Shown: positions 32,682 to 35,082 of the stretch, piece by piece
Layout of the letters: every line of letters begins with the position of its first letter
How positions within the stretch are numbered: position 1 is the stretch's first letter
DNA from: Escherichia coli
GTDB taxonomy: Bacteria > Pseudomonadota > Gammaproteobacteria > Enterobacterales > Enterobacteriaceae
Assembly (NCBI RefSeq): GCF_051903065.1
Contig: NZ_CP178438.1
Direction: 5' to 3' (one strand)
DNA length: 64,000 nt
Notes under the pieces: model-generated
What the model saw: only the letters and a program-made list of their open reading frames with translations
Told to the model about the DNA's origin: nothing
Database searches by the model: none
Program-made: the position numbers and the translations under genes

Positions 32682-32894
32682 TTAAGAGAGATAAACATTT
32701 GCCGCTGTTGGTCCTCGCAGGCCATTTACGCGACAAAATTCCACGCGTAATCCTGGTATAAGCACTTCTGCGTCGCGGGGAGTGAATGCGGAAATATGGA
32801 CCTGGACTTCTTTACGACCGTCGGAGGGGATAATGAATCCTTTGCCGCTTTTGCGATCAAAGGTTTTGACAATTCCTGTCATTTTACGGGACAA
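32682..32894 (-). CDS. cspH: Cold-shock-domain protein CspH
   Basis: 70-aa [40 protein letters not shown]... (CSD fold). Confidence 0.92.
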
Positions 32895-33180
32895 ACAAAT
32901 TCCTTACTGAAAATACTGCGCTGCACTATACGGGGTTAATAAAATAAAGCCAGCGATATTTAAGACCGCCGGACGGCTAAAATAAAATTTGCTTAATCTC
33001 AATTATCATGCGTTAATAGCTGCGTCGGTTTGAAAGACAGACAGCATACAAAGTAGTTTACTAAAGCAGTTCTCATTATCAGGCATTATCCCCTTCTTTT
33101 GAGTCTCTCTCCTGAACACTAAGTAGTTTCTGTATTAAAGCCCTGTTTGCCGAAAGGCCCAACAATGAAGGAAGTAAAAT

Positions 33181-33393
33181 ATGTCTAATAAAATGACTGG
33201 TTTAGTAAAATGGTTTAACGCAGATAAAGGTTTTGGCTTTATCACTCCTGATGATGGCAGCAAAGACGTTTTCGTCCATTTCACCGCCATCCAGAGCAAT
33301 GAATTCCGCACGCTGAACGAAAATCAGAAAGTTGAATTTTCTATTGAGCAGGGGCAACGTGGCCCCGCGGCAGCGAACGTTGTTACGCTCTAA
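33181..33393 (+). CDS. cspG: Cold-shock protein CspG
   Basis: 70-aa [41 protein letters not shown]... with RNP motifs. Confidence 0.95.
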
Positions 33394-33394
33394 G

Positions 33395-33592
33395 GTTGCC
33401 GTTATTACTCAACATCTCCATTTCCGCTGTCCATGTTGTCATGGTTCACAGTACCGTACATCGGCATTCGATGTGACGGAGCGAAACCCTTTGGGCGCTA
33501 AGTGTATTTTTTGTAAATCGACGATGATCACCTTTGATAACGTCGCGCTGCAAATACGCACTGACCATGCGCCGCTGGATTTCACAAAATAA
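33395..33592 (+). CDS. ymcF: Small CxxC zinc-ribbon-like protein downstream of cspG (start codon uncertain)
   Basis: Open frame ...HFRCPCCHGSQYRTSAFDVTERNPLGAKCIFCKSTMITFDNVALQIRTDHAPLDFTK ending at 33592; the track ORF 33332-33592 overlaps cspG so the true start must be a non-ATG or internal codon. Confidence 0.45.
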   Translation, partial: VAVITQHLHFRCPCCHGSQYRTSAFDVTERNPLGAKCIFCKSTMITFDNVALQIRTDHAPLDFTK

Positions 33593-33797
33593 TCTCAGGC
33601 TCCCTCGTGGAGCCTTTTTTATATCTGCCTTATTTTTCTTCAACGCTGTATGTATAGTAAGCGATAACCTGTTGATTATTGAATCTTTCGGGGAGATGGC
33701 TTATAACATTTCTTACCTGACCAGGGTACCGGGAACCAACACCTTACTGGCGTGTTGCTGTCTTTCAAGACCAGACGAGGTTAACAGTGAATATTGA
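33567..33797 (+). CDS. ymcE: Small protein YmcE/Sfa (questionable gene)
   Basis: 76-codon frame MRRWISQNNLRLPRGAFFISALFFF... from ATG 33567; note that a strong terminator lies inside it. Confidence 0.4.
   Translation: MRRWISQNNLRLPRGAFFISALFFFNAVCIVSDNLLIIESFGEMAYNISYLTRVPGTNTLLACCCLSRPDEVNSEY
33598..33620 (+). terminator. Rho-independent terminator of the cspG/ymcF transcript
   Basis: GGCTCC-CTCGT-GGAGCC followed by T6. Confidence 0.8.
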
Positions 33798-33960
33798 AGA
33801 GTTAAAAAAACAAGCCGAAACGGAAATCGCCGACTTTATCGCGCAAAAAATCGCCGAGCTGAACAAGAATACAGGGAAAGAAGTCTCTGAAATTCGCTTC
33901 ACCGCACGAGAAAAAATGACCGGGCTTGAAAGTTATGATGTCAAAATCAAAATAATGTGA
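33787..33960 (+). CDS. gnsB: GnsB (GnsA/GnsB family small protein)
   Basis: GTG-initiated 57-codon ORF VNIEELKKQAETEIADFIAQKIAELNKNTGKEVSEIRFTAREKMTGLESYDVKIKIM; too short for the ORF track. Confidence 0.8.
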   Translation: MNIEELKKQAETEIADFIAQKIAELNKNTGKEVSEIRFTAREKMTGLESYDVKIKIM

Positions 33961-34008
33961 TTTTGTGAACATCACCCCGTGCGAGGTGATGTTCCGCTTG
34001 TTGCTAAT

Positions 34009-35082
34009 TTAGTGACCAATCATTGGCGCTTGTGGAATTAAGCGTCGGTACAATTCCTCCGGCACCGGGCTTTGCCATACTCCCGCATACATTGCGTAAC
34101 CAATCACCGCAAACATAATCCCCAAAACCAGTAGTGTCATTAACCAGCCAGACAACGCAAAGGCTTTTTTATTTGCCGCAGGTTTTTGCAGTGAAAAGGT
34201 CAATGTTGAGGCTACCGGACATGACTCTACGCAAGTCATACAGCCGGTACATTCCACTGTTCGTACCTGAATTAATTTATCGACCGGGATCCGTGATGGG
34301 CAATTTTTTGCGCATTTGCCACAATCGATACAACTTTCGGCATTGCGACGAATCTTAAACGGCGATAATAGCGAAACCACGCCCATCAGCGCGCCATATG
34401 GGCAAAGATAACGACACCAGGCATGGCGAATAAACAGGCTGGCAATCAGCAAAACGGTCACGCTGATTAATGTCGCGGTCCCCATATGACGAAAGAAATC
34501 GAGCATTTTAACGTCCATCACCACGCTGTAGGGCGACAACATAAAATAGTGAATCGCCTGAGCGGGCATCAATAACGCGATATAGAGAAAAAAACTCAAC
34601 AGCACATACTTCACGCCGCGCAGAGGAATATCCAACCAGCGGGGAAGGACACATTGCCGACCAAACAGTTTGTTACCGAGAGCGCCGATTAATTCAGAAA
34701 GCGTACCAACCGGGCATAACCATGAGCAAAAGGCCTTTTTGAGTAATAGACTGATGACGATAAAAGCGACCAATAACAGCATCGCGGCGGCGTGGACGGA
34801 CGGTAACTGACCTGTTGCAAGGCTATATTTCAGATTCATCAGACCGGCAATCGGTAGCCAGCCTTCGATACCTCCCGGTCTGGCGACAAATGTCGTGCTA
34901 CTTGCCGTTTCGTAATAGCGCACCCAATACCAGAACGTGATGGCAATATAAATATTCATTGCCAACAGCAATAATTGCGTCGCTTTACGCCAGGTCGTGG
35001 CATTGTGCCAGTCATTCCACGGTAATTTGCCGCCCGTCGTGCCTGGCCGCCGCTGCCAGCGGGTTCTTTTATTCTCTGCCAT
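34009..35082 (-). CDS. yccM: NapH/MauN-like membrane-bound 4Fe-4S ferredoxin
   Basis: 357-aa ORF with TM segments and CxxCxxCxxxCP ferredoxin motifs (CIDCGKCAKNCP, CTGCMTCVESCP). Confidence 0.9.
   Translation of the reverse strand: MAENKRTRWQRRPGTTGGKLPWNDWHNATTWRKATQLLLLAMNIYIAITFWYWVRYYETASSTTFVARPGGIEGWLPIAGLMNLKYSLATGQLPSVHAAAMLLLVAFIVISLLLKKAFCSWLCPVGTLSELIGALGNKLFGRQCVLPRWLDIPLRGVKYVLLSFFLYIALLMPAQAIHYFMLSPYSVVMDVKMLDFFRHMGTATLISVTVLLIASLFIRHAWCRYLCPYGALMGVVSLLSPFKIRRNAESCIDCGKCAKNCPSRIPVDKLIQVRTVECTGCMTCVESCPVASTLTFSLQKPAANKKAFALSGWLMTLLVLGIMFAVIGYAMYAGVWQSPVPEELYRRLIPQAPMIGH

Follow-up and report, generated by a model that had tools for sequence, protein, structure and literature searches.

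Between the cold-shock gene cspG and the small gene gnsA, Escherichia coli is annotated with a 76-codon frame, ymcE (sfa), that starts within the preceding small gene, ymcF, and runs on into gnsA, crossing a terminator hairpin near its start. Is ymcE a gene, or is it a frame that happens to stay open across regulatory DNA? We addressed this question in a 64,000-nt stretch of E. coli DNA (contig NZ_CP178438.1), here called the window; every feature discussed lies on its + strand. Our reading, to which we give a probability of roughly 75% on sequence evidence, is that the locus comprises two transcription units, cspG-ymcF and gnsA, and that ymcE is most likely a frame across non-coding DNA.

The region is the known cspG/ymcF/ymcE/gnsA locus, with the gene order and cspG-relative coordinates of its K-12 counterpart (cspG, b0990; ymcF, b4723; ymcE/sfa, b0991; gnsA, b4517). 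About 5,400 of the 5,426 complete genomes of E. coli have it; with presence defined as a match to 80% or more of the 951-nt query 33100-34050, the count was 5,393. Identity over the region is 97–100% in nearly all of 5,414 matching E. coli genomes, with five in the 90–95% band. Divergence within E. coli is thus too small to judge whether a reading frame is being maintained, so other Escherichia species were used instead. Relative to K-12, the window has an identical structure and three substitutions in the 291 bases of 33540-33830 (99.0% identity), with no differences in cspG or gnsA; all three fall in the stretch occupied by ymcE alone, and each alters a ymcE amino acid. The reference annotation already contains the genes, the terminator and the ymcF ATT start, so the picture of E. 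coli cold shock is unchanged; our contribution is a re-annotation argument, with a correction on ymcE. A first-pass annotation made from the letters alone had listed an overlapping CxxC frame, the 76-codon ymcE, a GTG-initiated 57-codon frame and a terminator inside ymcE, and all of these are present.

A consensus scan places an intrinsic terminator at 33597-33621, composed of a 7-bp stem with five G-C pairs and a 5-nt loop (AGGCTCC-CTCGT-GGAGCCT, 33597-33615) followed by T6 (33616-33621). It begins 5 nt after the ymcF stop and 31 nt into ymcE, bearing out the earlier call of a strong hairpin and T6 at 33598-33620, 30 nt into the frame. The predicted fold has an energy of −12 kcal/mol (z = −3.9), and none of 200 shuffles was as stable. 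Of 37 csp-linked loci, about 30 have a hairpin and T-run 3′ of the ymcF stop, their stems unrelated in sequence; a terminator with differing stems is kept in Escherichia, Citrobacter, Salmonella, Kosakonia, Siccibacter and Pluralibacter. As judged from these predictions, the terminator is the end of the cspG-ymcF operon, a role that the first-pass annotation did not recognize; nor did it note the promoter-like block for gnsA within ymcE, described below.

Downstream lies gnsA (33787-33960; 57 aa, GTG start). Its product matches PF08178 at 122.3 bits (cut-off 27), is 100% identical to K-12 GnsA, and matches PDB entries 4XO1 and 4XO2 (“Protein GnsA”); all the listed E. coli records name the gene gnsA, and it is flanked by yccM, as in K-12. 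The first-pass annotation had this frame right and its name wrong: it was called gnsB, the Qin prophage gene, whose K-12 product is 67% identical to the window protein. In 17 homologous loci the codon aligned to this GTG start is ATG or GTG.

Inside ymcE, 80–108 nt before gnsA, is a promoter-like block (33679-33707) made up of TTGAAT (33679-33684), a 17-nt spacer and TATAAC (33702-33707). Our consensus scan skips it, since its rule demands a −10 element that ends in T. A conserved copy of the block precedes the gnsA/gnsB homologs of Escherichia, nine Citrobacter loci and Qin, and we infer that it is active as a sigma-70-like promoter belonging to gnsA. Taking transcription to start near 33715, a position set solely by that of the −10 element, the gnsA leader would span 33715-33786 and include a Shine-Dalgarno GAGG (33777-33780). 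The leader sequence CTGGCGYGTTG...ACAGACCAGAAGAGGT is common to the Citrobacter and Qin loci. A structured or thermosensing leader was considered and rejected, as the single-sequence fold is weaker than those of shuffles (z = +1.46); likewise, RNAalifold gave a conserved structure of just a 3-pair helix, with no covariation. A CUGG...CCAG pairing noticed by eye was dropped because it needs a register shift between loci. An upstream ORF in the leader of some Citrobacter (ATG-CCG-TTA..., its stop overlapping the gnsA start) was also set aside; it is disrupted in C. braakii and C. amalonaticus and, in the window, lacks an ATG.

The conserved position of this block bears on an alternative in which the whole locus is one operon, gnsA having no promoter of its own and being expressed by read-through, with the hairpin at 33597-33621 as a cold-responsive attenuator. 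The stem is modest, at 7 bp and about −10 kcal/mol for the hairpin alone, and antitermination by CspA-family proteins, which Bae and colleagues reportedly described as transcription antiterminators in 2000, would fit. In addition, ymcE and gnsA appear as one unit in an operon listing (PMC12218254). A paralogous case comes from Qin, where ynfR also spans a terminator hairpin and an SPA-tagged YnfR was strongly cold-induced (PMC6001520); this implies read-through of that terminator, and that ribosomes and transcripts alike can cross such a structure. Yet the −35/−10-like block keeps a fixed distance to gnsA even where some 340 nt and ynfN separate it from the terminator, the gnsA-type genes of Citrobacter are 500–800 nt from ymcF, and a natural strain with IS4 between the terminator and the promoter-like block has an intact gnsA. 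We consider a single attenuated operon unlikely; the two routes to gnsA, from its own promoter and by read-through, could coexist.

The ymcE frame (33567-33797, ATG start) runs over the terminator and a 22-nt junction, then over the gnsA promoter-like block and leader, and ends inside gnsA. Its start codon or frame is lost in all six divergent Escherichia lineages, and ymcF and gnsA are intact in every one. E. albertii, Escherichia sp. MOD1, E. coli SCPM and sp. E1V33 have AGG or ATA in place of the ATG, and the frame is interrupted by frameshifts or stops in E. whittamii, E1V33, E69 and SCPM. The pN/pS ratio of ymcE is 0.8–1.5, about 1, versus 0.02–0.10 for its neighbors: 0.02 for gnsA, 0.06 for ymcF and 0.10 for cspG (against E. 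albertii). These losses and ratios show ymcE to be free of coding selection. Ratios of about 1 can also be seen in very young genes. Total divergence in the ymcE region is about 0.08, far under the synonymous divergence of the neighbors (0.25–0.43), indicating constraint that is independent of the frame.

The 28 protein clusters of YmcE homologs come from Escherichia/Shigella, the sole exception being a partial sequence, 99% identical, from a 532-nt contig with a Salmonella label; the clusters include IS-replaced N-termini and frameshift fusions. We found no Shine-Dalgarno sequence before the ymcE ATG. In all 11 non-Escherichia loci examined, the equivalent frame is closed within 3–43 codons upstream of gnsA, and the DNA of ymcE has its homolog in non-coding sequence that precedes gnsA-like genes in Citrobacter and phage. 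Alignment with C. braakii yields two blocks, 33394-33624 and 33647-33956 of the window, between which C. braakii has about 340 nt with ynfN. The idea of ymcE as a decayed ynfN was tried and rejected: tblastn of YnfN against the window gave E values of at least 0.9, and no ynfN block was found by blastn. When the 194 non-overlapping bases of ymcE were shuffled with dinucleotides preserved, 2.8% of shuffles kept the frame open, and an open frame here is by itself unremarkable. By these comparisons ymcE is most likely not a protein-coding gene. The first-pass annotation had left a choice between no real coding gene and one dependent on read-through; the comparative data (the six losses, pN/pS near 1, restriction to Escherichia/Shigella, homology to non-coding DNA) favor the former.

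Could ymcE instead be genuine and young, an E. coli-specific protein, possibly an antitoxin of GnsA, translated from cold read-through transcripts? In E. coli sensu stricto the ATG and ORF are intact, with PGAP annotation, in nearly all sampled genomes; this is weak evidence either way, because those genomes differ by at most 3% here. The 11-nt overlap of ymcE with gnsA is of a kind seen in many antitoxin-toxin pairs, ymcE has Pfam and NCBIfam families of its own, and the cold-induced YnfR gives a precedent for translation across the hairpin. Overexpression phenotypes, for example butanol tolerance, have been reported for ASKA clones of ymcE (PMC3050900). Against a genuine ymcE, O157:H7 keeps it with a frameshifted gnsA, and IS elements just past the terminator in natural strains disrupt ymcE and leave gnsA intact. 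Homologs of gnsA/gnsB also occur with no YmcE ORF in 10 Citrobacter loci, in Qin and in phage Tritos. With these observations added to the losses across Escherichia, the pN/pS near 1 and the lack of a Shine-Dalgarno sequence, a young ymcE gene is improbable.

We are similarly doubtful that ymcE is a de novo gene at birth, that is, a 76-aa hydrophobic E. coli-specific protein whose frame was assembled when loss of ynfN joined the cspG-ymcF terminator to the gnsA promoter and leader, and which is translated only when antitermination in cold shock carries transcripts and ribosomes past the hairpin. Were it so, this read-through would also link the cspG cold-shock operon to gnsA, which modulates unsaturated fatty acids of the membrane.

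The overlapping CxxC frame, ymcF (33404-33592), encodes a 62-aa protein with four cysteines (CxxC...CxxC) that scores 166.2 bits against PF23641 (cut-off 27) and covers profile positions 1–62 of 62. Its relatives make up at least 137 protein clusters in more than 20 enterobacterial genera. Among 32 diverse members, C12 and C37 never vary, while C9, C11 and C34 are kept in at least 90%; the window protein has all five, as well as the invariant core HFRCPCCHGSQYR...GAKCIFCK. The AlphaFold2 model of YmcF (mean pLDDT 73.5) has short strands near the Cys pairs. A fold search of the PDB gave zinc ribbons as best matches (TFIIE, TFIIB, ribosomal proteins), every one with E > 1 and none below 1, while the YmcF profile found just weak matches among PDB sequences, to the Rieske “CPCHGS” box and to UvrA. 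Two possible relatives, ydfK and ynaE, were discarded, as neither sequence resembles ymcF; its actual paralog is ynfQ (b4724) in Qin.

The ymcF frame is open from 33332, within cspG, to 33592 and has no ATG after the cspG stop, from which the first-pass annotation had reasoned that it must use a non-canonical start or be coupled to cspG. RefSeq annotates an ATT start 10 nt 3′ of the cspG stop, likewise for K-12 b4723, and an ATT start also for the K-12 paralog ynfQ. For the window by itself, candidate starts include TTG and GTG codons within cspG, and orthologs were used to decide. The codon homologous to the annotated start, compared over 78 loci, is ATT in 38, ATG in 33 and ATC in three. ATT or ATC is used in 35 of the 35 loci where a motif scan found an adjacent csp gene. 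The scan scored no adjacent csp at any of the 33 ATG loci; tblastn shows one exception, C. sedlakii (L017), with a truncated csp upstream. The standalone genes that start with ATG have an AGGAG site. Three further standalone genes (L049, L075, L080) start with ATT, so that an upstream csp is not strictly needed for this start. From the ATT back to the nearest in-frame stop, 12–60 nt upstream, 15 ATT loci offer no canonical start (ATG, GTG or TTG) in frame. Given the RefSeq annotation and the alternation of ATT with ATG at the homologous codon, we conclude from comparative evidence that ymcF is real and starts at ATT. We found no report of AUU initiation of ymcF in vivo in the literature searched, and the bioRxiv version of Weaver et al. 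2019 makes no mention of cspG, ymc or ynfR.

The cspG stop and 10-nt spacer (33391-33403) contain a Shine-Dalgarno-like TAAGG that overlaps the stop, 8 nt before the ATT. TAAGG or TGAGG with 9–10 nt spacing is present in 35 of 35 csp-linked loci measured, and this fixed gap with the motif overlapping the csp stop suggests translational coupling of ymcF to cspG. The conserved association of ATT starts with an upstream csp would be a clean natural example of non-AUG initiation beside a highly translated gene, usable for studies of re-initiation. Synthesis of YmcF as a CspG-YmcF fusion, with ribosomes passing the cspG stop by programmed frameshifting or read-through, would suit a frame that is open back into cspG and has no ATG past its stop, but is highly improbable: the spacing from csp stop to ymcF is mostly 10 nt but is 9 nt in Kosakonia and relatives, which turns a +1 frame into the same frame, many loci have a ymcF-frame stop just upstream of the ATT, standalone orthologs have ATG exactly at the homologous codon, and CUC-UAA-G, read directly, is no known slippery site.

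The gene at the head of the locus, cspG (33181-33393; 70 aa, ATG start, TAA stop), is preceded by a cspA-type thermoregulator leader (33024-33180). The covariance model RF01766 matches 33024-33447, extending past the leader, at 159.7 bits (gathering score 78; E = 4.6e-43), and the cspG 5′UTR is an RNA thermometer by experiment (PMC13271884).

In the two-unit model, which replaces three or four stacked genes within the 570 bp, cspG and ymcF would form a cold-shock bicistron under the cspG promoter and thermometer leader. YmcF, predicted to be zinc-ribbon-like, would be begun at the AUU 10 nt past the cspG stop. Its production is probably at a low level and by ribosomes that have just finished CspG, through coupling or re-initiation, as the UAAGG overlapping the stop suggests. 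This unit would end at the hairpin and U6 of 33597-33621. The second unit would be gnsA, with its own promoter (TTGAAT-17-TATAAC), an unstructured leader of about 72 nt, the GAGG site and the GTG start. The ymcE frame would be open by chance from the end of ymcF into gnsA, and most likely no selected protein is made from it. Some cold read-through of the terminator is plausible, and would account for reports of “ymcE” cold induction.

The suppressor phenotype of sfa was reportedly attributed to gnsA by Sugai and colleagues in 2001. ymcE and gnsA have been treated as a type II toxin-antitoxin pair, among some eleven “well-characterised” E. coli pairs in modelling work (PMC8484670), and the profile names agree: PF15939 “YmcE_antitoxin”, which has an NCBIfam companion, and “GnsAB_toxin”. 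ymcE also gives gnsA its product name, “addiction module toxin”. For toxicity of GnsA or its neutralization by YmcE, the literature searched gave listings (PMC8484670) and no primary data that we could find. Because ymcE is most likely non-coding, the label of YmcE antitoxin and GnsA toxin is undermined. If ymcE is untranslated, the pairing is an annotation artefact; and if a terminator, promoter and leader have been misread as a protein, neither the toxin-antitoxin labels nor analyses that build on them are sound, and the function of GnsA has to be framed differently.

Compared with type II toxin-antitoxin modules, the locus is alike in having a small upstream ORF that overlaps a small downstream one. 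It is unlike them in that ymcE is not conserved alongside gnsA, the presumed antitoxin being absent from the Citrobacter, Qin and Tritos loci noted above; that ymcE shows no purifying selection, in contrast to gnsA; and that it contains a terminator and a promoter-like block.

The E. coli genes infC and pcnB use AUU start codons. Like them, ymcF has a conserved AUU start and a product that is presumably low or regulated. It differs in that a very highly translated gene ends 10 nt ahead of its AUU, an arrangement suggestive of coupling, and we know of no autoregulation by IF3.

At the terminator the comparison is with the Salmonella sRNA STnc220 (Rfam RF02077), a curated family whose 102-bit match in Salmonella takes in exactly the final ∼40 nt of the ymcF homolog and the terminator. 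The family ends at that terminator, which lends indirect support to transcripts ending there. The corresponding segment of the window, 33550-33630, is the only Rfam match in the region apart from RF01766, but scores 33.7 bits against a gathering score of 60 and so is not a member by the Rfam criterion. We found no mention of STnc220 in the literature searched.

The Qin/lambdoid phage cassette has the order cspI-ynfQ-ynfR-ynfN-gnsB (K-12 b1552 to b1550; phage Tritos genes 50–53). Between its terminator and gnsB lie ynfN (51 aa) and the 21-aa ynfR, and there is no ymcE; the window lacks ynfN, by the tblastn search above, and the ynfR ATG. The start codons of the last genes also differ, ATG in gnsB and GTG in gnsA. 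Common to the cassette and the window are the csp gene, the 10-nt gap, the ATT-initiated gene for a 62-aa CxxC protein, the hairpin and T-run, the promoter-like block, the AGAGG ribosome-binding site before gnsA or gnsB, and the GnsA/GnsB-family gene itself.

The cluster lies on the plus strand and comprises cspG (33181–33393, ATG start), ymcF (33404–33592, ATT start), ymcE (33567–33797, ATG start) and a final gene with a GTG start at 33787–33960, next to yccM (34009–35082, minus strand, ATG start). Of 5,426 complete E. coli genomes, 5,393 carry the 951-nt segment 33100–34050 over at least 80% of its length. The sequence features listed in the first-pass annotation are all real, as judged by reading the sequence and, for the hairpin, by consensus scan and folding. 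Its name for the last gene, gnsB, was wrong: 33787–33960 shows zero differences from K-12 gnsA, has yccM as its neighbor, and encodes a product matching PDB entries 4XO1/4XO2 (“Protein GnsA”), with 67% identity to GnsB of the Qin prophage. The gene is gnsA.

The same annotation had proposed that ymcE either is not a real coding gene or depends on read-through for its expression. The non-coding side is favored. Six lines of evidence (distribution, ORF integrity, selection, homology, translation signal and chance) agree, and from these sequence comparisons ymcE is most likely not a protein-coding gene. A search of 5.8 billion proteins yielded only 28 clusters of YmcE homologs, all from Escherichia/Shigella except for a single incomplete sequence, 99% identical, whose 532-nt contig bears a Salmonella label that is probably wrong. 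In several clusters the N-terminus has been replaced by IS sequence, part of the interior is deleted, or a frameshift fuses the frame to GnsA or YmcF. The comparison covered six further Escherichia species representatives from GTDB, of which two carry the label E. coli. Four of the six (E. albertii, sp. MOD1, E. coli SCPM and sp. E1V33) have AGG or ATA in place of the ymcE ATG, and four (E. whittamii, E1V33, E69 and SCPM) have a frame interrupted by indels or stops. All six carried at least one ymcE defect, and ymcF and gnsA were intact in all six.

Selection was assessed on the part of ymcE overlapping no other gene. Its pN/pS was 0.8–1.5, with similar values when the same bases were read in an alternative frame, compared with 0.10 for cspG, 0.02 for gnsA and 0.06 for ymcF (against E. 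albertii), the last under strong purifying selection. Divergence of the ymcE region from E. albertii is ∼0.08 per site, 3–5 fold below the synonymous divergence of its neighbors (0.25–0.43); with pN/pS near 1, this indicates that the ymcE DNA is constrained, though not as codons. Citrobacter braakii matched the window in two blocks, 33394–33624 (ymcF and the terminator; E 2e-35) and 33647–33956 (the upstream region and gnsA; E 3e-36), which in that genome lie ∼340 nt apart, flanking ynfN. In each of the 11 loci examined outside Escherichia, the ymcE-equivalent frame was closed within 3–43 codons of gnsA. No Shine-Dalgarno sequence was found before the ymcE ATG. Shuffling left a frame of this length open in 2.8% of cases, a rate at which some ORFs of this kind should turn up across a genome.

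Aligning the 230-nt upstream regions from 18 genes of the gnsA/gnsB type (Escherichia, Citrobacter and Qin) revealed a conserved block, TTGATTATTGAAT...17 nt...TATAAC, placing a −35 at 33679–33684 and a −10 at 33702–33707 on the plus strand, then a conserved leader, CTGGCGYGTTG-MTGYC-TTACAGACCAGAAGAGGT, and a start codon (GTG or ATG) fixed in position. These elements look like a sigma-70 promoter, leader and ribosome-binding site of gnsA's own; we infer promoter activity, with a transcription start near 33715. The consensus scan omits the TATAAC block because its rule demands T at the last −10 position. Folding found no significant structure in the leader. In one natural E. coli strain with IS4 between the terminator and the promoter-like block, gnsA is intact.

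The terminator, AGGCTCC-CTCGT-GGAGCCT followed by T6 (33597–33621), was found by the consensus scan and starts 5 nt past the ymcF stop; it folds at −12 kcal/mol (z = −3.9), a value equalled by none of 200 shuffles. A hairpin then a T-run, no more than about 20 nt from the ymcF stop, recurs in ∼30 of 37 loci with ymcF directly behind a csp gene. The stems differ in sequence (GGCTCC/GGAGCC, GCCCCC/GGGGGC, CAGGTCAG/CTGACCTG, GCCTCGCAGC/GCGGGGC and others), which points to conservation of the structure and not just of the sequence. By its sequence and placement, we assign this predicted terminator to cspG-ymcF. The Rfam sRNA STnc220 (RF02077) corresponds in Salmonella to the final ∼40 nt of the ymcF homolog together with its terminator. 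It matched subsp. diarizonae and arizonae of S. enterica (loci L014 and L025, 2647–2726) with 102 bits (gathering score 60); the homologous window segment, 33550–33630, scored 33.7 bits, below that threshold. A curated sRNA family ending at the hairpin gives indirect support for terminator action in vivo. STnc220, for which the literature searched gave no paper, may be a 3′UTR-derived RNA of the csp-ymcF mRNA rather than a free-standing sRNA gene.

Read-through in the cold deserves separate consideration. In Qin, the 21-codon ORF ynfR (K-12 locus L003, 7189–7254) starts 2 nt past the stop of ynfQ, the ymcF paralog, and extends across the equivalent hairpin after cspI-ynfQ, whose arms encode K-A-P-S-G-A-F. 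YnfR is a validated 21-aa protein, and its tagged form was strongly induced by cold shock (VanOrsdel et al. 2018, PMC6001520), so some transcripts cross the Qin terminator under cold conditions. A homologous hairpin exists in the window, without the ynfR ATG and hence without ynfR itself. By analogy, similar cold read-through may occur at 33597–33621, and would account for the “cold-shock protein” label given to ymcE in older annotation; it would not make ymcE a gene.

The CxxC frame, ymcF, had been said to need a non-canonical start or coupling to cspG. By comparison across loci it starts at ATT, as RefSeq annotates in K-12 for both ymcF (b4723) and ynfQ (b4724). We compared 80 loci, one genome per species, and could register the motif in 78, scoring adjacent csp genes by motif scan. 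ATT occupied the codon 1 position in 38 of the 78 (32 with csp directly upstream), ATC in 3 (all with csp) and ATG in 33 (all scored without adjacent csp, although tblastn found a truncated csp upstream of one, C. sedlakii L017); the other 4 had an ATG 1–3 codons off. All 35 loci with a csp end 9–10 nt upstream use ATT or ATC, and standalone genes with ATG have an AGGAG ribosome-binding site. In fifteen ATT loci the stretch from the prior in-frame stop (12–60 nt upstream) to the ATT holds no ATG, GTG or TTG in that frame, so the start there must be ATT or something a few codons away. ATT is also kept in three standalone genes, behind AAGGA and with no csp upstream (L049, L075 and L080, ∼2360–2520; Pseudescherichia vulneris and two unnamed Enterobacteriaceae); a stop lies 18–48 nt before the ATT and no canonical start is present. 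Coupling to csp therefore does not fully account for the ATT start. In csp-linked loci GG always follows the csp stop, giving a Shine-Dalgarno-like TAAGG or TGAGG 8 nt before the ATT; with the csp spacing, this makes coupling reasonable, and ymcF is probably translated by coupling to, or re-initiation after, CspG. A CspG-YmcF fusion by recoding is unlikely, since Kosakonia and relatives have a 9-nt spacing where most lineages have 10 nt, which alters the frame relation.

YmcF scores 166 bits against Pfam PF23641 (YmcF-like; cut-off 27), and its homologs form at least 137 clusters from more than 20 enterobacterial genera, sharing the core HFRCPCCHGSQYR...GAKCIFCK. Two of the cysteines, C12 and C37, never vary, and three others (C9, C11 and C34) are conserved to at least 90%. 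The AlphaFold2 model has a mean pLDDT of 73.5; the closest matches in a PDB search were generic zinc ribbons, none significant. Residues 9–17 (33428–33454), the invariant CPCCHGSQY, are close to Rieske box II (CPCHGSQY, cytochrome b6f PetC), with weak PDB and NCBIfam matches (E 0.02–0.8). Cys11 and His13, conserved beside the CxxC pairs, leave room for a metal center differing from plain Zn(Cys)4. Experiments have shown that the cspG 5′UTR acts as a cold-activated RNA thermometer (PMC13271884), and YmcF, being co-transcribed with cspG, should be a cold-shock protein. An enterobacterial csp-ymcF-ynfN locus also appears on a contig titled Chryseobacterium sp. 18061 (L067); its layout equals that of Citrobacter sp. 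18056 from the same study (L064), with closely matching flanks, and the assembly is probably mislabelled or contaminated.

Other observations concern the surroundings. Divergent from cspG, cspH (32682–32894, minus strand) has TTG as its annotated 70-aa start, making three non-ATG starts within 1.3 kb (cspH TTG, ymcF ATT, gnsA GTG). The stops of the convergent genes gnsA and yccM flank a perfect inverted repeat of 10 bp with an 8-nt loop (GAACATCACC/GGTGATGTTC, 33967–33994). The consensus scan omits this repeat because no T-run follows it on either strand; it may terminate transcription, bidirectionally or in a non-canonical way, or bind a protein. O157:H7 strain 86-24 (L085, 748–920) has gnsA annotated as a frameshifted pseudogene, with ymcE, ymcF and cspG intact, and the match is likewise 1 nt shorter in two other E. 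coli records of a spread sample, strains 134 and 26_141088, for which no serotype is stated. IS elements are drawn to this small region (L086, 88–1434; L001, 329–1309; proteins P0133, P0138 and P0139): strain 2022S01-140-18 has IS4 just behind the terminator of cspG-ymcF, strain ECNB21-M121 has ISKpn26 in the cspH–cspG interval, and a Shigella YmcE variant (135 contigs) has an unrelated N-terminus that we read as IS-derived.

The first-pass annotation reasoned soundly, and a side can now be chosen in each of its alternatives: ymcE is most likely non-coding, and ymcF uses ATT with probable coupling. Little of this is new; its value is as an argument for re-annotation. Database names mark YmcE as an antitoxin and GnsA as a toxin, but unlike in type II modules the two do not co-occur, the “antitoxin” is without selection, and a terminator and a promoter-like block lie inside ymcE, so on these comparisons the assignment appears not credible by every test run. 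Active lambdoid phages carry a cspI/ymcF-type/ynfN/gnsB cassette immediately downstream of their lysis genes (Tritos, L089, 1978–3037; search matches H74–H77 and H79). The ymcF-type gene is unannotated in five of nine phage records, probably owing to its ATT start. Both the Qin prophage and lambdoid phage Tritos have cspI, the ymcF-type gene, ynfN and gnsB, without ymcE. The locus in the window is the known K-12 locus, a chromosomal paralog of this lambdoid-phage cassette.
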